Positions 1 to 23,876 of a DNA stretch of 33,724 nt are shown piece by piece. Position 1 is the first letter of the stretch. Each line of letters begins with the position of its first letter. Both the position numbers and the translations under genes were made by a program. The notes beneath the pieces are model-generated. The model ran no database searches. It saw only the letters and a program-made list of their open reading frames with translations, and was not told the origin of the DNA. The DNA comes from Methanosarcinales archaeon (lineage in GTDB: Archaea; Halobacteriota; Methanosarcinia; Methanosarcinales; Methanocomedenaceae), in contig DAOUSF010000003.1 of NCBI GenBank assembly GCA_030627385.1, positions 1 through 33,724 on the forward strand, in the 5' to 3' direction.

Positions 1-153
1 CCATGGAGACAATTTGCAATAACCTTATGGAACATAATCTGTCTCTATGATTTCCAAAGCCCCCATCTGGTGAGTGTTTAACGCATCCGTCCTGTGTTAT
101 TAGCCGGATGCTGTCTTTCCCGGTGCGTGCCCCATATATCACTACACCCCACC

Positions 154-1131
154 TCACAGATCCAGGTGCGGGTTCAGGTCGCATCCGGTACAGGGCAGGC
201 ACATAGTACGGGACACATCGGCCCGCAGCCCGTGATCATCCAGTATCCGGCGCAGTATCCGTGTAAGTTTTAAGAGCCGATCCCTGTCAGGCCGCTCAAT
301 ATCTACCTCACCAACCCGCAGCGGATGCATACTTGCTGCCCTTAGTATGGGCACCACATCCATTAAAGCCAGTTCCTCAAGTCCTGCCTCCACTGTTTCG
401 TCAGATTCCCCCAGGCCGATAATAAAGTTGGAAAACACGAAGTTCCTGCCGAACAATCCAACTGCTTCTTTCAGTTTCCCAATAATGAAATCGTGGTCCA
501 TACCCGGGCATACACGTTTGAATATTTCGCGGTCCATGGTCTCCACATTGTACTTTATTTCTACTGCTCCAGCTTCCTTCAATTTCCGGTTGGAATCAAC
601 TGTGGGGTAGACAGACACCCCGATAGGTAGATTGTATTTCCCGAGGGCTTTCACAGCCTCTACTGCCCTTTCCACTTCCTCTTCAGCAGACCCTGCCACG
701 CCAGACGTAATGGAAATCGCCTTCAAGTTACCCGTGCTGTACGCCTCCTCCACCATGCGAACGATCTCATCCAGGCTCTTGATCTTACCTGAAAGTTTTG
801 GGACCGGACAGTACTTACAATCAAAAATACACTGCTCACTGATAGTGATATATGCCTGTTGTGGGCAGTGTATCAGTTCCGCTTCAATATGCCCCCTGAC
901 CAATACTTCTGGTCCCTTGAATATCACGATATCGCCGTTATCAGCTACAGCTTTCAACCCGGACCCTTCATCTACTGCCAGCCTGACCCGGTGAGCGTTC
1001 CAGCTGAAGAAAAAGGCAGTTCCACCTGCTCCGGGTCCTGCCGTTGGTACGGTAATCTCACCAAGTAATGACCTGTCGATATCAATAGTACCAACGGCTA
1101 TAAGCTCGGCTTTAATTTCTGCATCACTCAT
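154..1131 (-). CDS. Radical SAM protein, biotin-synthase-like fold, function unknown
   Basis: CxxxCxxC motif (CIFDCKYC), TSG and IIGLGE motifs typical of BioB-like radical SAM proteins, and an extra C-terminal CxxCxxC (CLPCTGC). ATG at 1131 preferred over the TTG at 1152. Confidence 0.85.
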   Translation of the reverse strand: MSDAEIKAELIAVGTIDIDRSLLGEITVPTAGPGAGGTAFFFSWNAHRVRLAVDEGSGLKAVADNGDIVIFKGPEVLVRGHIEAELIHCPQQAYITISEQCIFDCKYCPVPKLSGKIKSLDEIVRMVEEAYSTGNLKAISITSGVAGSAEEEVERAVEAVKALGKYNLPIGVSVYPTVDSNRKLKEAGAVEIKYNVETMDREIFKRVCPGMDHDFIIGKLKEAVGLFGRNFVFSNFIIGLGESDETVEAGLEELALMDVVPILRAASMHPLRVGEVDIERPDRDRLLKLTRILRRILDDHGLRADVSRTMCLPCTGCDLNPHLDL

Positions 1132-1182
1132 GGCTATTACATTCCTTGTCAATTACTGCTATGATTTAATTACATTATGCAC

Positions 1183-1230
1183 GTATAGTTGTTGACCGTT
1201 TATAGGTATAGTTGTTGACCGGTTCGTCAA
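1183..1230. promoter_or_regulatory. 16-bp direct repeat (GTATAGTTGTTGACCG x2) in a divergent promoter; putative operator
   Basis: Identical 16-mers at 1183-1198 and 1206-1221 flank TTTATAG. The second copy overlaps TTGAC-N6-GTCAA (1215-1230). Confidence 0.6.
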
Positions 1231-1286
1231 ACGACGATGTGGTATTCGTTAGGTTTATATTATGTGCAGGTAAATTAGTACAATGC

Positions 1287-2015
1287 ATGCAAGGGGACAA
1301 TACCGATAGTGATATTAAGAACCGCCTTGCTGAAAAAATGGCTGGCGAAATAACACTCTCTAACAAGCCCGGAGAGGTTATGAAAAAATGGAGGATAAAT
1401 TTTGATGTGGCCCAGTCCGACCTATCCACATTTCTGGATGTTTCGCCTTCTGTTATCAGTGATTACGAGAGCGGGCGGAGGAAATCACCTGGTACTGTTA
1501 TTGTGAGCAAGATCGTGAACGCACTGCTCGATATCGACGAACAGCGCGGCAGTAAGAAGATCCGTGCGTATGAGAATATGATATCTGAGAGTTATGATAA
1601 AAAAATTGTGTTCGACATCCATGAATACACTTCCCCCATGCCCATGACCGAACTAGCAAACCTCATTGAAGCTGAAATAATACATGAGCAGAACTCAGAA
1701 TACGATAAGCAGCTATACGGTTATACGGTGGTGGACAGCCTCAAGGCAATCCTTGAATTGCCCTCCTATGAATTCCAGAGACTTTACGGTTGGAGCACAG
1801 AGAGGGCCATGATCTTCACCAGGGTATCAACGGGCAGGTCCCCGCTGGTTGCCATCAGGGTTACCAGCCTCAAGCCCGGTGCCATTGTGCTTCACGGGCT
1901 TAAAGGAAAGGACGTTGACCCCATTGCCAGGAAGATCGCAGAGGTTGAGAACATTCACTTAATGTCCACGATGATGCCTGTGGAATCAATGATCAAGATA
2001 CTTCAATCACGTTAA
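1287..2015 (+). CDS. XRE-type HTH transcriptional regulator of the archaeal family found upstream of HMG-CoA synthase
   Basis: HTH segment QSDLSTFLDVSPSVISDYESGRRKSPG. ATG 1287 lies 27 nt after a TTTATAT box (1254-1260), suggesting a leaderless mRNA. Confidence 0.85.
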   Translation: MQGDNTDSDIKNRLAEKMAGEITLSNKPGEVMKKWRINFDVAQSDLSTFLDVSPSVISDYESGRRKSPGTVIVSKIVNALLDIDEQRGSKKIRAYENMISESYDKKIVFDIHEYTSPMPMTELANLIEAEIIHEQNSEYDKQLYGYTVVDSLKAILELPSYEFQRLYGWSTERAMIFTRVSTGRSPLVAIRVTSLKPGAIVLHGLKGKDVDPIARKIAEVENIHLMSTMMPVESMIKILQSR

Positions 2016-2093
2016 TGGTGACCACAACAGATTTACCGGATAGGTCATTATTCTTCGAAATATAATATTATTACCATAATCCAGGTGAACCAT

Positions 2094-3134
2094 ATGAATG
2101 TAGGAATTATGTCTTACGGCGTATATATCCCCCGATATCGCATAAAATTAGAAGATATTGCTGCGGTCTGGGGAGCAGATGCCGCATCTATCAAGAAAGG
2201 GCTGAAGGTTAATGAAAAATCAGTCCCGGGTCTTGACGAGGACGCCATTACCATTGCTGTGGAAGCAGCACGCAGTGCTGTAAAAAGAGGTAATATTGAC
2301 ACTTCCGGGATCGGCGCTATTTATACCGGGTCCGAGAGCCACCCGTATGCCGTTAAACCCACAAGTACCATAGTAGCAGCAGCCATCGGGGCTGAACCCG
2401 TCCTCACAGCAGCAGATTATGAATTTGCATGCAAGGCAGGTACTGCCGCCATACAGACCTGCATGGGCATGGTAGCTGCCGGCATGATCGATATTGGCTT
2501 GGCCATAGGTGCGGACGTGTCCCAGGGTGCACCCGGCGATGCACTGGAATATACGGCTGCTGCCGGAGGTGCCGCATATGTGATCGGCTCCTCTCGGCTT
2601 GCAGCAATTATCGAAGATACATATTCGTTTACTACCGATACCCCTGATTTCTGGAGGCGTGAGGGAATGCTTTATCCTGAACACGGGGGAAGGTTTACCG
2701 GAGATCCGGGTTATTTCAGGCACGTGACCTCGGCGGCAAACGGCCTGATGGAAAAGATAGGTTCAAAACCTTCTGATTATGATTATGCTGTATTCCACCA
2801 GCCTAATGGGAAGTTCCCTGAAAGGGTTGCCGGGATGCTGGGATTCACAACCGGGCAAATAAAGCCAGGACTGGTGGTTCCAATGCTGGGCAACACATAT
2901 TCCGGTTCTTGTATGATCGGGCTGGCCGCCATTTTAGACCAGGCAAAGGAAGGGGACAGGATATTTATGACAGCATTTGGTTCAGGCGCGGGCAGTGATG
3001 CATTCAGCATCACGGTCACTGATAAGATAGAGGATATACGAAATAATGCCCCAAAGGTGCAGGAATTGCTTGCTGATCCTATATACCTGGATTATGCCAG
3101 CTATGCCAAGCACAAGGGCAAAATAAGGATGTGA
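2094..3134 (+). CDS. Hydroxymethylglutaryl-CoA synthase (archaeal)
   Basis: [11 protein letters not shown], catalytic [16 protein letters not shown] and GNTYSG motifs; AGGTGA RBS before ATG 2094. Confidence 0.95.
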
Positions 3135-3140
3135 TGCCGG

Positions 3141-4313
3141 ATGAGGGATGTTGCAATAATCGGTACTGGCTGTACTAAGTTCGGAGAGTTATGGGATCGT
3201 TCCTTAAGGGATATTTTCGTTGAGGCCGGAGTGTCCGCCATTGTGGATGCAGGTATCCAGGGAGAAGAGATCGACGGTCTGTATATGGGTAATATGAGCG
3301 GCGGCAGGTTTGTGGATCAGGAACATGTGGGCAGCCTGATAGCCGATTATGCCGGTTTGGCAAGTAAACTGCATGTGCCCGCCACAAGAGTGGAAGCTGC
3401 CTGTGCTTCCGGCGGCCTTGCACTGCGTCAGGGCATTCTTGCCGTGGCTTCCGGATATGCTGATATTATAGTAGCCGCGGGTGGTGAGAAGATGACAGAT
3501 GTGGACCTGGACACAGCCACAGATGCACTGGCAGCGGCTGCCGACAGGGAATGGGAAGGCATCATGGGTGCCACGTTCCCTGGTCTGTATGCAATGATAG
3601 CCAGGCTCCATATGCACAAATACGGTACTACATCAGAGCAGCTGGCTGCTGTTTCTGTGAAAAACCACCACAACGGTACCATGAACCCGATCGCCCAGTT
3701 TAAAAATGAGATCACCCTTGATACAGTGCTGCAATCCAACATGGTGGCTGATCCCCTGCACATGTTCGATTGTTCTCCAATATCCGACGGTGCGGCTGCT
3801 GTGGTGCTGGCCCCGGCAGATGTTGCAAAAAAATATACTGACACTCCTGTATACGTGAAGGCCACGACCCAGGCCAGCAGTCCTATCTCCCTCCACGATC
3901 GTTCGGATATAACCACACTGGACGCTTCAGTGGTGGCGGGTCAGCGTGCATATAAAATGGCCGGACTTACCCCTGGCGATATTGATCTAGTGGAAGTGCA
4001 TGATTGTTTCACCATTGCCGAGATATGTGCCATAGAAGACCTTGGATTTTTCGAAAAAGGTGATGGCGGCAGGGCATCGGAAGATGGCGAGACTGCCATT
4101 GGCAGTAGCATACCTGTGAATCCATCGGGCGGTCTTAAGGCCTGCGGGCATCCGGTGGGAGCAACCGGTATCAAACAGGCAGTGGTGATCACAGAGCAGT
4201 TGAGGGGAACAGCAGGTAAAAGCCAGGTCGATGGTGCCGGAATCGGTATGACCCATAACGTAGGCGGTTCGGGCGGCACTGCTGTGGTACATATTTTTTC
4301 GAGGGACAGGTGA
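3141..4313 (+). CDS. Acetyl-CoA C-acetyltransferase (archaeal thiolase)
   Basis: [30 protein letters not shown] and HNVGG motifs; operonic with HMGS. Confidence 0.95.
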
Positions 4314-6174: not shown

Positions 6175-8142
6175 CTATCCATGGTTTTTCTTATTGTTCT
6201 GTAGTGCTATTTCGATTTCATGCACAGCTTCCGGATTGGCAAGGGTGGAGATATCCCCTACTTCCTTTGATATAAGGGCCAAGCGCACTATCCTGCGCAT
6301 GATCTTACCGCTTCGGGTTTTTGGGAGGTCGTTGACAAAGTATATCGTGTCCGGCCTGGCGATCTTCCCGATCTCTTCGGCCACGTGGCCCCTTAGTTCC
6401 TGCAACAGTTCTTCATTGTGATCAACTCCGATCTTTAACACTACAAATGCAGTTATGCTCTCACCTTTGAGGTCGTCGGGACGGCCTACTACCGCTGCTT
6501 CACTTACATGTGGGTGACTGACCAGTGCGGATTCCACTTCTGAGTTGCCTATCCTGTGGCCTGATACGTTCAATACGTCATCGCCCCTGCCCTGTACCCA
6601 GAAATAACCGTCACTGTCTATCCTGGCAATATCCCCTGTTATGAATTCACCGGCTTTGTTGTAGTAATGCTCTTCATACCTCCCTGAGTCATGGTAGAGG
6701 GTACGCAGCATGGCTGGCCATGGACTGTTCATAACCAAATTGCCACCTTCATTTATGACAGGTTTGCCATCATGGTCAAGTACCAGGGCACTAAAACCAG
6801 GCAATGGTCTTCCTGCAGACCCGGGTCTGGTGGGCGACAGGGGCAGCGGGGAAATTACAAAACTACCGGTCTCGGTCTGCCACCAGGTATCCATTACCGG
6901 GCACCGTTTATTACCAATGTTCTCATAGTACCATATCCAGGCTTCAGGGTTGATGGGTTCACCCACACTGCCCAGGAGCCGCAGGCTGTCCATATTGTTT
7001 TTCCGGGTCCATTCTTCGCCAAAGCGCATGTGCATCCGGATGGATGTGGGTGAAGTAAAGAGTACACTTACCTTGTGCCGTTCAATCATTTCCCATAACC
7101 TGTTTGGCTGTGGGTGGGCGGGAGCACCTTCATAAAGCAATGAGGTCACGCCAAGTATTAAAGGGGCATATACAATGTAGCTGTGTCCGGTTATCCATCC
7201 GATATCGGCGGCACACCACCAGATATCATCTGGTTTCAGGTCAAATACCCATTTAAGTGTGAATGAAATTCCTACAGCATATCCGCCGTGAACATGTAAA
7301 ACGCCTTTTGGCTTACCTGTGGTACCGGAGGTGTACAGGATAAAGAGCGGGTCTTCCGAATCCATTATCTCGGTTTCGCATTCTAATGGCTGGTCATTTG
7401 TCAACTCATGCCACCACAGGTCGTTTTCTCCCATTTGAACATCACAATTAGCCCATTTGTATACAATCGTATTATTGACCTCAGTACCCTCGACTCCTTT
7501 CTCTGCCTCTGCTTTTAAGTTGATGACCTTCCCTTTTCTCCAGAAACCATCGGCAGTTATCAATGTCTTTGCATCTGAACTGATAATCCTGTCTTTTAGT
7601 GCATTGGCAGAGTAACCTGAGAATACTACACTGTGTACTGCACCGATCTTTGCACATGCCAGCATGGCTATGGGCAGGGCAGGTATCATGGGCATGTATA
7701 TTTCCACTCTGTCGCCTTTACCCACACCCAGTTGTTTAAGGCCGTTGGCCAGCTTGTTAACCTCATGGTACAGTTCCAGGTATGTAAGTCTGGTCACATC
7801 GCCTTGTTCGGATTCGAATATGTAGGCTACCTTGTTCTCTGTGGGTGTACCGATGTGGCGGTCGAGGGCGTCGTGGACGATGTTGTATCTGGCATTGGTG
7901 AACCAGTGGTAGAAGGGTTTTTTGGAATCGTCCAGGACTTTATCGTAGGGTGAGTACCAGTCTACTAAGTCTTTTTCTACTTCGCCCCAGAACCATTCGA
8001 TGTCCTGGCTGCGCTCATAAAGTGACTCGATATCAGGGATGTCATGGGCGTCCATCCACTGTTTGACATTGCTCTGTTCAACTATTTCTTCCGGAGGATG
8101 GAATGTTCGGTTCTCATCTAATAGCACTTCTACTCTGGTCAT
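6175..8142 (-). CDS. acs: Acetate--CoA ligase (AMP-forming acetyl-CoA synthetase)
   Basis: [31 protein letters not shown] and [12 protein letters not shown] signatures; AAGGAG RBS. Confidence 0.95.
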
Positions 8143-8364
8143 TTTAAAAAAAACTCCTTTATTTAAGATTGTGTTAATATTATTGTCTGGAAGGATAAAA
8201 TTTTCTAACGCAAGGGGAGGTGGGGGAGGATAGAAATATTCATATAATCAGAGAATAATTTTGAAGATGTGTTATATACAAGTCTCGTTACATTTTGTAT
8301 AGGGTATACTGTGACTTGAATATTAAATAACTTACTAAATAATTAATAAATAGGCGGTATAAAA

Positions 8365-10020
8365 ATGAATCAGTCCCAATTCATAATGCGTTTTGATCCC
8401 CTCACAATTAAACATCTTGGAGTACGGATGTATTCTACTCTTACTCCTGCATTAGCTGAAATCATTTCAAATTCCTATGATGCCGATGCAACAAATGTAA
8501 CTGTTAAATTAATTCAAGATGGCAACGTCCCAAAAGAAATAAAAGTTGAAGATGATGGAATGGGGCTATCATTTGATGAAATAAATGATAAATTTCTAGT
8601 TATTGGACGCAATAGACGGGATGATATAGGTGATGTTCCTTCACCTAAATATAAACGTTATTCAACCGGGAAAAAAGGACTCGGCAAACTTGCACTTTTT
8701 GGTTTAGCAAATACCATCACAATTTCAACAATACAGAAAGGAAAAGTAAATGAATTTGTATTAGACTGGGACGATTTAATGGCAGCAACAGGAAATTATC
8801 AACCTAGAGCGACAATTACAAACGAAAATACTACAGAAGCCGATGGTACAGTAATTACGATGTCAGGCTTAAAAAGAAAAACGCCGTTTGATTTTACAGG
8901 TTTGGCAGATAGTTTATCTCGAATATTTATTTTCGACGAGACATTTAATTTATTGATTGAATCATCTTCTGGAGACCGAACATCTATAGATAATAAAAGA
9001 AAATACAGTTTGATCACAAAACAATTTGAATGGAATCTTGACTCCACTCTATATGTACCACTCGATTGTCCATATTTCGGAAAAATTGAAGGCAATATCA
9101 TAACTTCAGATAAACCATTGAAACCATCATCAGGTCTGAGAGGAATTACCTTGTTTTCGAGAGGAAAACTTGTTAATGCACCTGAATATTTTTCTGATAC
9201 CCAATCAAGTCACTTTTATCAATATTTAACCGGATGGATAAGTGTAGATTTTATTGATGAATTAGAAGATGATGTTATATCAACAAATCGTCAGTCTATA
9301 GATTGGGAACACTCGGAAATGGCAAGCCTTAGGGAATTTCTTTCAGGGATAGTATCTCAAATTAATGGCGAATGGCGACTAAAGCGAAAAGAAATAAAGG
9401 ACGATGATTTAAAAGAAAAAACAGGAATTGATACAGAAAAATGGATAAATACTTTAACGGGTGATGTAAAAAATAATACCAAACAAATTATCGAATCATT
9501 GGGCGAAGAAGATGCTCTTGAAAAATATACTCCTGTCATAAAAGCACTTCATAATATGATTCCCGAATATCCATTTTATCATTGGAGACATTTGCATTCT
9601 GAAGTTCAAATAATATCAAAAGAATATTATGAAACTGAAAATTATTATACTGCATTTCTTGAAGCAATAAAAAAATATTCTAATGCCGTAAAATCAAAAT
9701 CCGGCAGCAGTGCAACTTCTGATCTTAATTTAATGGGAAAAGTTTTTAACGACTCAGATGGAATTCTAAAGGTTATAGGAGAATATAAAAAAATAGATGG
9801 GGTCAATTTTTCGGAAGAGACACAAAGAAATGTGCAAAATGGACAACAACATTTATCACAAGGTATTGTTGCTGGTGGACGAAATCCTCTTTCTCATGAA
9901 GAAATTGGTGAATTAAAAATCTCCGGTTTATTCTCTGAGAGTGACTGTTTAGATATGCTTAGTTTATTATCTCATTTGTTTAAAAGACTGGATAAATCAA
10001 CAAAGGAAACTAATGATTAA
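8365..10020 (+). CDS. GHKL (MORC-like/HATPase_c_3) ATPase fused to a C-terminal TIGR02391 (Ymh, HEPN-like) domain
   Basis: GHKL motifs EIISNSYDA, EDDGMG, GKKGLGK and DGT. The C-terminal region LHSEV...YYTAFLEA...LMGKVF...GRNPLSHE carries an Rx4H motif (9880-9897). Confidence 0.8.
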   Translation: MNQSQFIMRFDPLTIKHLGVRMYSTLTPALAEIISNSYDADATNVTVKLIQDGNVPKEIKVEDDGMGLSFDEINDKFLVIGRNRRDDIGDVPSPKYKRYSTGKKGLGKLALFGLANTITISTIQKGKVNEFVLDWDDLMAATGNYQPRATITNENTTEADGTVITMSGLKRKTPFDFTGLADSLSRIFIFDETFNLLIESSSGDRTSIDNKRKYSLITKQFEWNLDSTLYVPLDCPYFGKIEGNIITSDKPLKPSSGLRGITLFSRGKLVNAPEYFSDTQSSHFYQYLTGWISVDFIDELEDDVISTNRQSIDWEHSEMASLREFLSGIVSQINGEWRLKRKEIKDDDLKEKTGIDTEKWINTLTGDVKNNTKQIIESLGEEDALEKYTPVIKALHNMIPEYPFYHWRHLHSEVQIISKEYYETENYYTAFLEAIKKYSNAVKSKSGSSATSDLNLMGKVFNDSDGILKVIGEYKKIDGVNFSEETQRNVQNGQQHLSQGIVAGGRNPLSHEEIGELKISGLFSESDCLDMLSLLSHLFKRLDKSTKETND

Positions 10021-11050
10021 ACAAAATTTCAAAGCCATTGATCTTTTCTCTGGTTGTGGTGGTCTGACCGAAGGAATGAAACAAGCCGGGTTTAAAGTGA
10101 TTGCAGCAGTGGAGATAGATCACTATGCGGCCGAAACTTACAAAAATAACCACAAGAATGTAAATTTATTCGAACAGGATATAACAAATGTGAATCCGGG
10201 TGATATTAAAATAATTTTGGGCGGGGAGCCATTGCATTTATTGGCTGGTTGCCCACCATGTCAAGGTTTTTCATCCGTCCGAAGGTTAAATAAAAAAGAA
10301 CCTGTGAAGGATGCAAGAAATGATTTGATTTGGGAATATTACAGGTTTGTCGAAGCTCTGATGCCCTTAACGCTTATGATGGAAAACGTTCCGAGTTTGG
10401 CGGATTATAAACCCTTTCAAAATATGGTAGAAAAATTAAAACATCTGGGATATTCTAGTGTCAAATATGAAAAAATTATGACTCATGAGTATGGCGTTCC
10501 GCAAAGAAGGCGGAGATTGGTTCTGGTGGCTTCGAGAATCGGGAAAATCGATATACCCCAAGGAAATAAAAAATTCAAAACCGTTCGGGATTGTATAGGC
10601 AACATCGAACCAGTCGAATCCACCACGGATTTACTGCACAAAATATATCCTATACATACTCCAAAAGTATATGAAAAAATTTCCAAAATCCCTTTGGACG
10701 GTGGAAGTCGAAAAGATTTACCTGTTGAGTATCAGCTGAAGTGCCATATGAAAGAAAATGTTGGATTTAATGACATTTATGGAAGATTGAAATGGGATTC
10801 TTTTTCATCGACCATTACTGGCGGTTGTCTGAATCCGTCAAAGGGTAGATTTCTTCATCCTCAAGAAAACAGATGTATTACGGCGAGGGAGGCGGCATTA
10901 TTGCAGACATTTCCCAAAAAATATAAGTTCCCTATAAATATCAATAAAAGTGCCATTGCTCTTATGATAGGGAATGCCTTACCGCCCGAATTCAGTAGAA
11001 TACAGTGCAATAATATTTATAACCACTTGAAGGATAATTTAAATGGTTGA
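10013..11050 (+). CDS. DNA (cytosine-5) methyltransferase
   Basis: FSGCGG (motif I), GCPPCQGFS (IV), MENV (VI), QRRRR (VIII) and IGNALP (X); overlaps the upstream gene by 8 nt. Confidence 0.95.
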   Translation: MIKQNFKAIDLFSGCGGLTEGMKQAGFKVIAAVEIDHYAAETYKNNHKNVNLFEQDITNVNPGDIKIILGGEPLHLLAGCPPCQGFSSVRRLNKKEPVKDARNDLIWEYYRFVEALMPLTLMMENVPSLADYKPFQNMVEKLKHLGYSSVKYEKIMTHEYGVPQRRRRLVLVASRIGKIDIPQGNKKFKTVRDCIGNIEPVESTTDLLHKIYPIHTPKVYEKISKIPLDGGSRKDLPVEYQLKCHMKENVGFNDIYGRLKWDSFSSTITGGCLNPSKGRFLHPQENRCITAREAALLQTFPKKYKFPININKSAIALMIGNALPPEFSRIQCNNIYNHLKDNLNG

Positions 11051-11459
11051 CAAATTTTCAAAACACAAACGTTCCGAAATAATGAGTCATATCAAATCGA
11101 AGAATACGAAGCCCGAAATAACTGTGAGGAAAATCATCTATTCGTTGGGTTATCGATATAGACTGCATCGAAAAGATTTACCGGGTAAACCAGATTTGGC
11201 TTTCATCAAGAAAAAAAAAGTAATTTTCATAAACGGTTGTTTTTGGCATGGACATTCGGGCTGTAAAAAATCGGCCTTGCCAGATACAAATTACGAATTT
11301 TGGAATGATAAAATAAAAAATAATGTCAATCGAGATACGCAAAATTATAAACTATTGGAAGATATGGGTTGGAAATATTTGTTAATTTGGCAATGTGAAA
11401 TTAAAAATTATAATCTTGAAAATATTAAATCAAATATTATACACTTTTTAAACGAATAA
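11043..11459 (+). CDS. vsr: Very-short-patch repair endonuclease Vsr
   Basis: RSEIMSHIKSKNTKPE, LPGKPD, FINGCFWHGH and IWQC motifs; overlaps the methylase by 8 nt. Confidence 0.95.
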   Translation: MVDKFSKHKRSEIMSHIKSKNTKPEITVRKIIYSLGYRYRLHRKDLPGKPDLAFIKKKKVIFINGCFWHGHSGCKKSALPDTNYEFWNDKIKNNVNRDTQNYKLLEDMGWKYLLIWQCEIKNYNLENIKSNIIHFLNE

Positions 11460-11582
11460 AAGCCAAAAAAACAAAAAACGATAAAAACCCTAATGCACCC
11501 GCACCGGAATGCCTCCGATTTTTCAATACGAGACCCGTGACTACCTACTTATTTTTTACGCAGAATTTGTATCTTCAGTAAT

Positions 11583-12944
11583 TCAATTATCAAGGGATAA
11601 ATGCTTTACCTTAGGACCCTCTGCAATTAATTCTGACAAAATTTTCGAAAAATCATCTGACCGATAATAGATTAACTTCTTTTTTCCAATAATGTTCTTT
11701 TCGACCAGCCCAAATTTTTCCAACCACATTATATCTGTTCTCGCAGTTTGATAAACAGTATTAAATCTATTTTGAATCTCTTTTATTGTTAAAGTTAATT
11801 TAGGGTCATCGTATAATAATTTCAATATGTGAATTTGCCTGTCATTAATATTTTTAATTTTCTTAAAATCATATAATTCACTTTTTTCCAGGATTTTTCT
11901 ATTAATATACTCTGTTAAACTATCAAAAGCCAAACCCATTGTTTTTAATTGATAATTTATAAAATAAGTTAAATCGTTTTCATCAAGTTCTGTGTATAAA
12001 TAAGCTCTTGCATATTGTGCAGGAGATATCAAAATCATTCTGGAGATAGACATATATTCAATAAGCCAATAACCTTTCTTAAGCAAATACCAATAAAAAA
12101 TTGCTCTTGCTGTTCTTCCATTTCCATCTACAAAAGGATGGATATAACCAATTAAAAAATGTAAGATTGTGGCTCTGATAATTGGATGAATAAATCGTGA
12201 TTTGTTTTTATCATTTGCAAAAACACAAAAGTCATCAATGATTTTGTCAATATATTTGCAATCCGGTGGAAAATAAATAACTTCTCCATTTGAATTTACA
12301 ACCGTAACATCATTTGATTTTCTGAAATTTCCCTCATCACCTGGATTTTTCAATGTATCTTTTGTAATAATCGAATGAATTTCAAGAATTAATTCATTTG
12401 TTATTTTTTCATCTTTTAATTTTGTCAATTTTTTTATTGTATGATAATTATTCAAAATCATTTGTTCAGATCTATCTTTTGGCTCCCTTTCTTCCCTCAA
12501 CATCTTCTTTGCATTTTTTCTCGTTGTGGCAGCTCCCTCTAATTGGCTTGAAGCAATTGCCTCTTCCATAATCGAATTAATTAAATATTTATTCTTATCA
12601 GCACTTGGAATTATCTCTTCTCCCCCAAGCCTTCCCCCCAGATTAAGATCAAATTCATGTAATTTTTGTTGAATATCAGCTGTTAAATTATATTTGAAAT
12701 CAAATCCTTCGATATCACTTATTTTAATTTTTTCTGCATTTAAATTTCTATTTATTTTAACAAGTATCCATAATTTTTCTGGATCAATTTGTCCAATTCT
12801 TTTTTTGTATTTGAATTCAGACCAATATAAATATCTATCAATGGCCTCTTTGATTAGTGGTCTACAAGCATCATTTTCTAAATATTTAAGTGCATCACCA
12901 AAATCATCACCTGTTATTTTTGGTGGACTTTCCGGAATTTTCAT
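11583..12944 (-). CDS. Fic-family AMP transferase (class II, N-terminal inhibitory helix) with probable C-terminal wHTH
   Basis: Canonical HPFVDGNGRTAR motif, inhibitory SSQLEG motif, and C-terminal TIKEIQNRFNTVYQTARTDI helix-turn-helix-like segment. Confidence 0.9.
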   Translation of the reverse strand: MKIPESPPKITGDDFGDALKYLENDACRPLIKEAIDRYLYWSEFKYKKRIGQIDPEKLWILVKINRNLNAEKIKISDIEGFDFKYNLTADIQQKLHEFDLNLGGRLGGEEIIPSADKNKYLINSIMEEAIASSQLEGAATTRKNAKKMLREEREPKDRSEQMILNNYHTIKKLTKLKDEKITNELILEIHSIITKDTLKNPGDEGNFRKSNDVTVVNSNGEVIYFPPDCKYIDKIIDDFCVFANDKNKSRFIHPIIRATILHFLIGYIHPFVDGNGRTARAIFYWYLLKKGYWLIEYMSISRMILISPAQYARAYLYTELDENDLTYFINYQLKTMGLAFDSLTEYINRKILEKSELYDFKKIKNINDRQIHILKLLYDDPKLTLTIKEIQNRFNTVYQTARTDIMWLEKFGLVEKNIIGKKKLIYYRSDDFSKILSELIAEGPKVKHLSLDN

Positions 12945-12959
12945 GAATTATTTTACCTG

Positions 12960-13048
12960 CTGTTAATTACTAATTTTAACAATATTAGTAATTAATAGTA
13001 AATAAACATGTCTGAATGTTAATTACTAAATTAGTAAATATTAGTAAT
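12960..13048. promoter_or_regulatory. Two palindromic operators ATTACTAA-N11-TTAGTAAT upstream of fic
   Basis: Copies at 12966-12992 and 13022-13048. The first extends to a perfect 12-bp inverted repeat (12963-12974 / 12984-12995). Confidence 0.6.
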
Positions 13049-13239: not shown

Positions 13240-13764
13240 CTAATCGACCTTAATAGATTTATTATCAGACCTGTCATATTTGAACACCACTTCCAGCACT
13301 CCATTCATATAAGTAGCCTTTGCCGAATCAGCCAGCACCCTGGCAGGCAGTTCCACACGTTCCGAATACTTCCGGTCCCCATTCCTTGCCTTAATATTCA
13401 GCACAGTCCCGGAAATCTCAAGGCTGACATCCTCCTTGGTAATACCAGGCATTTCCACAACCACATGCAAGCAATCCTCAGCTTCCATGATATCAACAAG
13501 AGGCTTGCGCACACCCGCCTCCACATGTGCAGCACCACCCTGGTGCTCCAACCCAAACCCGGAGAACATTTCATCCCTCAGGCTTACATTACCGAACTCC
13601 CTGATCTCAGGCGGTTCATTACCGTGCTGGGTCATGGAATATCCCCATACAAGTGGCTCACCCATCTCTTCATTATCGATCCTGGATTCGAACATACTTC
13701 TGATCATTTCATCCATATCTTCGAAAATATCCTCAAATATATCCTTTCGTCGTCTATTCCCCAT
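13240..13764 (-). CDS. hsp20: Small heat-shock protein Hsp20
   Basis: Archaeal EFGNV motif and alpha-crystallin domain (PLVDI...EMPGITKED...ATYMNGVLEV); AAGGTGA RBS before ATG 13764. Confidence 0.93.
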   Translation of the reverse strand: MGNRRRKDIFEDIFEDMDEMIRSMFESRIDNEEMGEPLVWGYSMTQHGNEPPEIREFGNVSLRDEMFSGFGLEHQGGAAHVEAGVRKPLVDIMEAEDCLHVVVEMPGITKEDVSLEISGTVLNIKARNGDRKYSERVELPARVLADSAKATYMNGVLEVVFKYDRSDNKSIKVD

Positions 13765-13789
13765 TATCAATCACCTTGTAATATTGTTA

Positions 13790-22607: not shown

Positions 22608-23876
22608 TTAAAATTTACAATCACTCCTCCCATCCATCAAAAACTTATACCCCTTCACCACCTCTATCACCTTTCCCTCCACCTCCAGCCGCTCCTCTCT
22701 GTCAGGCGTAACAATATACCCCTTATCCACACCGAACTTCTCCATAAAAGTAACCAGACCCTTCGTCTCAATCTTCCCTGCCTTTATCTCCACAGGAACC
22801 ACCTTCTCATCAGCAATAACCACATCAACCTCATGTTTATACGAATCCCTCCAGAAAAACTCAGCCCCCAACTGGTTTACCATCAACCATTCAAAAACCC
22901 TTGACCTTGACAGCACGTCTATCTCAAACACCACATCAAGCAGCAGTGTAGAATAATACTTCTTCAACTTCCTTTCAGTCTTCCTCCTGTTAGTAGAGAA
23001 ATTGTATAGCTTCTTCACTAAAAATGATTCCTGGAGATACATCAAATAATTGGAAACTGTCTGCCTTGAAACATTGAGTTCCTTGCCCAGGTCAGAAATA
23101 TCAACAAGCTGCCCGGGCCTGTCAATAATAATCTTCAGCAGCGAATCCAGCACACCCACATCCCTGACCTTGAACAACTGTGAGATATCCCTGTAAACGA
23201 TCTTTTCGATAATGCTTTCCCTGATGTACTTCAAAATAATCTCCCGGTCCCCGATTCCCACAAGTTCAGGAAATCCCTGGGTTTGTATGAACTGCTGGAA
23301 TAATCCTGCCAGTTCCCTTTCATATAATTCAACCGGCTGGAACTCCGTCTCGTTAAATCTCAGGAATTCATTAAAAGAGAGCGTATCAACTTTAAATTCA
23401 AAAATCCTGCCAGATAATGTTTCGTTTGACTCTTTTCTCAAAAACAGCGACTCTGAGCCCGAAAGGATTATTTTCACACGCTTGCCGTAAATGTCATAAA
23501 TCCTTTTTATCTGGTCTTCCCAGTTCGTAAGCTTCTGAATTTCATCCAGCAGCAACAGATACCTGCCTTCCTTAACATTCTTCTTCATCAGTTCTTCATA
23601 TTCTACTAATACCTCACTGACCTGTGCATCCCTGAAGTCATCGAATGAAAAGTAAATAACATTATTGGGGTCCCACCCACTGTCGATAAAGTCTGAGGCA
23701 ATCTTGAACATCAATGTGGTCTTACCCACTCTCCTAAGTCCGGTAAATGCAATGATCTGGGGAAGTGGTAAAAATTTGGATACCTGATCAAAAATATCCC
23801 TCTCATGATATTCCAGTTCAAATTCTCCCCTCCACCATTCATTGGAGTCCAGAAGCACCTTTCTAATGTTTGCCAT
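22608..23876 (-). CDS. AAA+ ATPase of the COG1373 type (AAA_14 + wHTH + DUF4143)
   Basis: GLRRVGKT, LLDEIQ, SGS, LSGR and GFPE motifs; C-terminal EVD...VEIK PD-(D/E)xK-like motif. Confidence 0.9.
   Translation of the reverse strand: MANIRKVLLDSNEWWRGEFELEYHERDIFDQVSKFLPLPQIIAFTGLRRVGKTTLMFKIASDFIDSGWDPNNVIYFSFDDFRDAQVSEVLVEYEELMKKNVKEGRYLLLLDEIQKLTNWEDQIKRIYDIYGKRVKIILSGSESLFLRKESNETLSGRIFEFKVDTLSFNEFLRFNETEFQPVELYERELAGLFQQFIQTQGFPELVGIGDREIILKYIRESIIEKIVYRDISQLFKVRDVGVLDSLLKIIIDRPGQLVDISDLGKELNVSRQTVSNYLMYLQESFLVKKLYNFSTNRRKTERKLKKYYSTLLLDVVFEIDVLSRSRVFEWLMVNQLGAEFFWRDSYKHEVDVVIADEKVVPVEIKAGKIETKGLVTFMEKFGVDKGYIVTPDREERLEVEGKVIEVVKGYKFLMDGRSDCKF

Follow-up and report, generated by a model that had tools for sequence, protein, structure and literature searches.

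A methylase-coupled GHKL ATPase–HEPN cassette of a Methanosarcinales archaeon is a likely restriction–modification-like system with a predicted RNase effector

Positions 8365–11459 of a 33,724-nucleotide (nt) stretch from a Methanosarcinales archaeon (contig DAOUSF010000003.1, assembly GCA_030627385.1; the whole stretch is called the window) carry three forward-strand genes. They encode, in order, a GHKL ATPase fused to a Ymh/TIGR02391 HEPN domain (8365–10020; 551 residues), a C5 cytosine DNA methyltransferase (10013–11050; 345 residues) and a Vsr T:G mismatch endonuclease (11043–11459; 138 residues). The cassette is likely a defence system resembling type II restriction–modification (R–M), with an ATP-gated RNase predicted in place of a DNase as its restriction component. 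The fusion is of the paraMORC type and R.NmeAIP-like, and the restriction endonuclease (REase) position is taken to be filled by the ATPase itself, because its closest relatives are paraMORC3 enzymes of the HgiDII/BbrUII kind.

We put at about one half the probability that methylation marks self and that unmethylated DNA closes a GHKL clamp, activating the RNase and causing dormancy. The methylase, whose motifs are intact, would modify host DNA at its site. The ATPase–HEPN protein is predicted to form a homodimer through its linker and HEPN domains, with the Rx4H pair at the interface; on meeting unmethylated cognate DNA its ATPase module, closely related to that of paraMORC3 REases, would probably close in a step that needs ATP. 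Closure would then switch on a composite HEPN site, and the cutting of cellular or viral RNA would lead to dormancy or death. Vsr, judging from its family, would repair T:G mismatches at methylated sites and appears dispensable. The narrower proposal, that an HgiDII-like clamp itself reads the methylation state of the DNA site and fires the HEPN RNase on unmethylated DNA, with effector tails interchangeable at about residue 400, is plausible but more tentative.

Profile searches place HATPase_c_3 at residues 26–148 of the first gene product (E = 1.6e-20) and Hypoth_Ymh (PF09509) at residues 408–542 (E = 2.5e-19), together with a TIGR02391 match of 64.5 bits (cutoff 39.45). Residues 8–381 match the BbrUII/HgiDII REase model NF050001 with 208.7 bits, below its cutoff of 550. 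The GHKL and S5 module, delimited by alignment with MORC3, the NF050001 match and invariant residues, spans approximately residues 9–347 (8389–9405, + strand). It is followed by a helical linker of approximately residues 348–407 (9406–9585, +), defined from the model and sequence comparison, and by the HEPN domain, defined from profiles, structure and alignment (residues 408–543; 9586–9993, +), whose Rx4H motif RNPLSH occupies residues 506–511 (9880–9897). All 78 complete fusions carry E32, N36, D39, D63, G65, G67, G102, K104, G105, G107, K108, R309, R506 and H511 without exception, and Rx4H is kept in 57 of 65 rows of a more distant set. An initial annotation of this DNA had credited the first gene with all GHKL motifs and a TIGR02391-like tail with intact RNPLSH, and both statements hold.

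The monomer model of the 551-residue protein has a predicted local distance difference test score (pLDDT) of 90.9 and a predicted template modelling score of 0.76. Its residues 9–338 align with MORC3 (Z 23.4, r.m.s.d. 3.5 over 292 aligned residues), and the Foldseek list is filled by GHKL matches. Compared with HEPN chains, residues 410–547 align best with 2hsb (r.m.s.d. 3.0 over 108 aligned residues), followed by many other HEPN chains; the Z score of 9.8 is modest for a helical bundle, and the HEPN assignment rests jointly on the fold and on the TIGR02391/PF09509 matches. A sequence search of the tail against the protein data bank gave nothing under E 0.6. On the modelled structure, the tail has a HEPN fold with an intact Rx4H motif, in agreement with the HEPN-like domain first proposed.

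A predicted homodimer of residues 52–548 scores 0.70 against 0.00 for the best control. Of 30 solved homodimers 20 reach the pass mark, compared with 1 of 23 monomers; the N-terminal strap was omitted for size, and the score may reflect resemblance to solved HEPN dimers. Contacts agree by at least 61% between runs, with pLDDT of at least 70. The predicted interface comprises linker residues 367–409 and HEPN residues 471–537, including 503–509 and 511–512. The fusion is thus predicted to be a homodimer with two Rx4H motifs at its interface, consistent with the composite HEPN site that the initial annotation had suggested. Together, the invariant R506, H511 and ATPase residues, this predicted dimer and the genomic setting described below support an ATP-gated RNase switched by methylation.

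The nearest relatives without a Ymh tail are proteins of 615–670 residues that match NF050001 over their full length, and the motif D-x-(I/V)E(L/I)K is present in 19 of 20 tested. When 64 of 146 rows were placed in a tree built from the ATPase module alone (IQ-TREE in quick mode, LG+G4, no bootstrap), 41 Ymh rows and 15 rows with other tails grouped together at a Shimodaira–Hasegawa-like approximate likelihood ratio (SH-aLRT) of 99, beside the group that passes the NF050001 cutoff. This chassis, common to PD-(D/E)xK REases, argues for the proposed mechanism. The tail changes three times on the tree, at least two of these changes being forced by starred branches, with the direction of change not fixed. 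The L087 fusion is 53.5% identical to the REase-tailed L105 protein over residues 9–398 while its tail shares 52% identity with the HEPN domain of the window, which places the swap near residue 400. Methylase subgroups are likewise common to REase-tailed and HEPN-tailed ATPases: locus L232 has the gene order of the window and a methylase of the same subgroup (49% identical) beside a 662-residue non-Ymh ATPase. From such comparisons, PD-(D/E)xK, HEPN or TIR-like tails appear to have been exchanged at about residue 400 on the same clamp and methylases.

Three side observations concern these tails. In L087 and L094 an REase-type ATPase seems to have acquired its tail by a separate and recent swap; a 586-residue type with a TIR-like tail (spbK profile) lies beside a C5 methylase (L104:5942–7702; P0209) and would be a third effector; and at L106:545–6066 one methylase is flanked by a HEPN-tailed gene and a 698-residue REase-type GHKL gene.

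The REase chassis and position also speak for the presumption made in REBASE for R.NmeAIP, namely that the fusion is a genuine type II REase whose Ymh domain cuts or nicks DNA at the unmethylated site; the 2008 survey by Orlowski and Bujnicki (PMC2441816) lists the family as a subtype P putative REase. However, the tail has a predicted HEPN fold with an invariant Rx4H and bears no likeness to PD-(D/E)xK tails (best 4.8 bits), the same survey could assign no nuclease fold to it, and characterized Rx4–6H HEPN domains are RNases (PMC3710099). DNA cleavage by the tail is therefore improbable. The claim that the island holds no REase stands as regards a separate gene, none being present between acs (6175–8142) and hsp20 (13240–13770); it does not stand as regards the fusion, which itself matches REase models. 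In the PADLOC and REBASE checks that had been advised with novelty in mind, two REase_II profiles and the PD-Lambda-3_B and Aga_HEPN profiles of PADLOC match the first gene, and the fusion is entered in REBASE as putative R.NmeAIP.

The coupling of the fusion to a methylase was surveyed over loci drawn from several searches (16 of 16 matches, the best 80 of 565, the best 80 of 159, and others), a sample weighted towards close relatives; both parts were present in 86 entries, and removal of four duplicates (L017, L018, L085 and L091) left 82 loci including the window. At 74 of the 82, a C5 methylase is found no more than 5 kb away. Its gene overlaps that of the fusion at 40 loci and lies within 50 nt at 25, within 400 nt at 4 and farther at 5; the resulting 65 tight pairs support a functional link between mark and effector. 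Vsr is present at 34 of 82 loci, no further family at more than 5 and no REase family at more than 4. The orders are methylase–ATPase (35), methylase–ATPase–vsr (14, one vsr on the other strand), ATPase–methylase–vsr (10), vsr–methylase–ATPase (5), ATPase then methylase or opposite strands (4) and others (14). The three-gene order stressed by the initial annotation is therefore not the unit, being that of just the 10 loci with the arrangement of the window.

Full context, defined as 2 kb on both sides, was available for 45 loci; 142 of their 160 neighbouring open reading frames (ORFs) were scanned in Pfam, and the PADLOC scan covered unlabelled ORFs and 14 of the other 18, of which two are window genes already scanned and two were unscanned. 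By hand calls, an REase-type gene occurs within 1.5 kb at 16 of the 45 loci and none was recognized at 29, although some REases may have escaped recognition; homologous loci thus do not always include a separate REase, and the proposal that the fusion is itself the effector gains support. Of the 16 neighbouring REases, 13 have their own methylase (one uncertain), 2 are methyl-directed and 1 (at L080) shares. That some REase lies near these 16 loci could be read as the trace of a larger R–M locus that lost its REase; yet no REase family recurs beyond 4 of 82 loci, the two- or three-gene unit sits alone among housekeeping genes in many genomes, and the catalytic residues are invariant. These neighbourhood counts contradict a deletion remnant, to which we give very little credence: with a methylase at 74 loci, Vsr at 34 and no other family at more than 5, the cassette is not a remnant.

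Some neighbourhoods are richer. At L003, L005, L007 and L051 the cassette is placed within or next to type III mod–res operons (at the first three, the three-gene cassette stands between mod and res), and at four loci it neighbours HaeII systems. Next to the methylase–ATPase pair, a HhH-GPD mismatch glycosylase replaces Vsr at L011:7633–8337, L016:7260–7988, L231:8294–8947 and L233:4697–5392, and follows the fusion gene in L011 and L016. An ABC ATPase of about 600 residues (PADLOC HEC-04-like) occurs within methylase–ATPase–vsr operons at L056:3364–5154, L066:4466–6247 and L097:5139–6977.

The second gene matches DNA_methylase (E = 8e-57). Motif I, the PC motif and ENV are all preserved, and to judge from these motifs its product likely methylates its site in host DNA. 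The third is a Vsr gene (TIGR00632, 143.8 bits, cutoff 97.85); Vsr repairs T:G mismatches arising from 5-methylcytosine deamination. The window methylase is 33% identical to that of the Neisseria-type locus L084; CCGG cannot be assumed as its site, because it belongs to another subgroup and has a different target-recognition motif. Searches for site avoidance in cassette DNA failed on their positive controls, CCGG occurring 178 times against 174.6 expected in the NmeAI-like group and GTCGAC, the HgiDII site (PMC5867850), 15 times against 16.6 in the HgiDII-like group. The top avoidance word in the group of the window, CCGCGG (3 against 14.7 expected), is distrusted on that ground. Genome-wide, CTAG and CTCGAG are strongly depleted, at 0.28 and 0.24 of expectation, although such depletion is uninformative on the target site of a recent insert.

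One comparison with a Neisseria-type locus bears on whether protection lies in the mark. The intact ATPase–HEPN protein of L084 is 44% identical to that of the window and 51% identical to that of L080, where one run of genes (L080:4652–8635) encodes a C5 methylase, an HpaII-family REase and, immediately after this pair, an ATPase–HEPN protein, with no methylase of the usual subgroup. The L080 methylase is only 24% identical to that of L084. HpaII cuts at CCGG. M.NmeAI methylates this same sequence (PMC4676702, PMC7973814), and L080 fits protection by the mark and not by the protein. In Neisseria gonorrhoeae (L032:4933–8072; L117), beside comP, the methylase and ATPase–HEPN genes are both broken while Vsr is intact, which again supports a functional pairing of effector and mark. 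This gonococcal copy is likely the NgoAXIV/NmeAI locus; NgoAXIII was considered and dropped on gene order and the comP neighbour (10.1101/630434), neither identity being proven.

The genomic setting is that of a defence element. Matches to congener DNA stop at 8316 on the left side and begin again at 11548–11579 on the right (one loose contig end falls at 11535), delimiting a strain-specific insert of approximately 8316–11545 upstream of acs, with no convincing direct repeats or target duplications at its ends. In congener G005 the same slot (L223:6881–9758) holds an ABC-3C/Lamassu-like set consisting of CTD10, MC6 and an ABC ATPase split over two ORFs, which supports the defence role first proposed; the cassette is a patchy, transferred element in a variable defence slot. 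As described initially, its three genes are AT-rich and overlap by 8 nt at both junctions: their G+C content is 33, 38 and 30% (ATPase–HEPN, methylase and Vsr), against 45–49% in four tested flanking genes and 43.6% in the genome, and at third codon positions it is 0.20–0.36 against 0.48–0.53 in the same flanking genes. No second copy of any cassette gene occurs in the genome.

The methylases themselves have been exchanged, at 24–38% identity and with four changes of subgroup on the Ymh rows of the ATPase tree, which bears on two readings in which the methyl mark is not read. The methylase or a neighbouring R–M complex could silence the ATPase–HEPN protein as a PrrC/RloC-like backup, released when a virus inhibits the silencer, or by DNA damage or nucleotide changes. 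A role of this kind was proposed in 2013 (PMC3710099); it suits the type III and HaeII neighbourhoods, L080, equally readable as an HpaII add-on, a stand-alone Ymh gene beside HsdS in L229, and an alignment search in which no ATPase column tracks methylase type independently of phylogeny. Nonetheless there is nothing to back up at the 29 loci where no REase was recognized, a tight protein contact would hinder exchange at such low identity, and the chassis is that of DNA-reading REases, leaving this reading unlikely. Alternatively, the fusion could sense a viral product or DNA structure independently of methylation, like the GHKL Shedu protein VcSduA, the methylase being a passenger from an R–M ancestor. 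Three full-context loci without a C5 methylase, the free swapping of methylase subgroups, stand-alone paraMORC3 genes noted in 2008 (PMC2292703) and the protection given by VcSduA alone (PMC12137116) point that way; a passenger, however, would be lost more often than the tight coupling in several gene orders allows, and we regard this reading as slightly less probable than a backup role.

Several observations weigh against the methylation-switched RNase that we favour. VcSduA, a related GHKL nuclease, defends as a single gene (PMC12137116), and no control gene was seen that could hold back a toxic effector when it enters an unmethylated host. A clean Rx4H is absent from 8 of the 65 more distant rows. 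Of the eight loci without a C5 methylase, five are cut by a contig end and three are not: the fusions at L087:4763–6424, L094:6971–8623 and L089:5131–6831 are intact and flanked on each side by 2.5 kb or more. The methylases partnered with ATPase–HEPN proteins belong to no fewer than four subgroups, which differ in target-recognition motifs, and the lack of an ATPase column following methylase type counts here as well. The L008 protein is about 80% identical to those of L004 and L011, but its methylase is just 33% identical to that of L004, a swap that makes strict sequence reading by the ATPase hard to accept. The argument from L080 rests on a single locus, and the tie of L032 and L084 to NmeAI on gene order, the comP-adjacent position and 98% methylase identity between L084 and the gonococcal copy.

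The only gene besides the cassette between acs and hsp20 is a Fic–winged helix-turn-helix gene (11583–12944, − strand; PADLOC SoFic, 158.8 bits; 28% G+C), preceded at 12952–13048 by AT-rich direct and inverted repeats. It adjoins hsp20 in two of five congeners (G001 and G006, 92–95% identical, with other DNA following in G006) and is absent beside hsp20 in G003 and G005. As a fourth cassette member it was rejected: it is resident in congeners that lack the cassette and lies near 3 of 82 fusion loci. The low-G+C stretch is thus two pieces, Fic being common to congeners and the cassette not. Profile searches identify the flanking genes as acetyl-CoA synthetase, KaiC, Hsp20, CDC48 and Fae–HPS, a set that suggests a methanogen-like archaeon; an AAA_14 and DUF4143 ATPase at 22608–23876 (− strand; 40–45% G+C) is unrelated to the cassette. 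The stretch occurs in sequencing runs of metagenomes from marine sediment and cold seeps. Among the contigs of a single RNA run, the cassette is covered by a few fragments at depth 1–3, none spanning the stretch, compared with 100–3700 for acs and hsp20. A scan for sigma-70 promoters found 27 against 27.5 by chance, this bacterial type being the wrong kind for an archaeon.

Full-length fusions occur in 1 of 40 relatives and in 2 of 401 genomes of the phylum, that of the window included, and the named close homologues, at 72–75% identity, are bacterial; the archaeal emphasis of the initial annotation is not upheld. None of 3 matches in a phage collection and 3 of 31 in a plasmid collection span the whole ATPase–HEPN protein. 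Other archaea of the phylum encode stand-alone linker–Ymh proteins of 238–245 residues (L229:5940–6656 and L230:5483–6220), the former after a type I HsdS gene.

If correct, the proposed mechanism would wire R–M self-marking directly to RNA destruction and dormancy, and one methylation sensor would drive either direct restriction or abortive infection, depending on its tail. Prokaryotic MORC-like ATPases have long been proposed to read methylation, and this role would become testable with two genes. Natural pairs for such a test exist: one methylase subgroup occurring with either an REase tail or a HEPN tail, and the HEPN-tailed ATPase that adjoins HpaII. The family is widespread and has stood in REBASE as a putative REase of unassigned nuclease fold since 2008.

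The cassette is real, intact and likely defensive, but its kind has already been described computationally and the archaeal copy adds a member. The novelty first claimed is not supported, since the fusion in R–M loci was printed in 2008 as the R.NmeAIP family of 18 GHKL–Hypoth_Ymh putative REases (PMC2441816) and in 2013 as paraMORC–Ymh fusions in R–M neighbourhoods, proposed as analogues of PrrC and RloC (PMC3710099), paraMORC3 itself having been defined in 2008 (PMC2292703). No experimental test of the fusion was found in the literature searched, most subscription papers and supplements lying outside its coverage, and excerpts of PMC6116569, PMC10952713 and PMC9519451 hold nothing bearing on the cassette. 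The three-gene NmeAI system (PMC3787668) shares with the window a C5 methylase, a GHKL–Hypoth_Ymh protein and a patch-repair gene, but its order is methylase (M.NmeAI), putative R.NmeAIP, vsr, whereas that of the window is ATPase–methylase–vsr with a methylase of another subgroup; L084 stands in here for the NmeAI sequence. The paraMORC–Ymh proteins of PMC3710099 have the same fusion, R–M context and Rx4H, yet were seen as a second line beside R–M, whereas here the fusion would be the sole effector at most loci. PrrC and RloC are also NTPase-controlled HEPN RNases, PrrC being tied to R–M (PMC3710099), but they combine an ABC ATPase with type I R–M instead of a GHKL ATPase with a lone C5 methylase. 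The PADLOC profile of PD-Lambda-3 B matches the Ymh tail (residues 408–549, E = 1.9e-10), although that system has neither a GHKL module nor a methylase; excerpts of the literature searched contained no passage on its activity. VcSduA (PMC12137116) and Tiamat (10.64898/2026.09.30.754977) share a GHKL clamp with a dimerizing C-terminal effector, and ATPase and nuclease are both needed for their defence; their effectors are DNases, however, and VcSduA works without a methylase and spares the host. HgiDII and BbrUII have the same GHKL–S5 module, a C5 methylase of the same superfamily branch and Vsr, and differ by their PD-(D/E)xK tail, the window match to their model ending at residue 381. Classical type II R–M, finally, has a separate cognate DNase gene, a place that the fusion itself appears to fill in the window.

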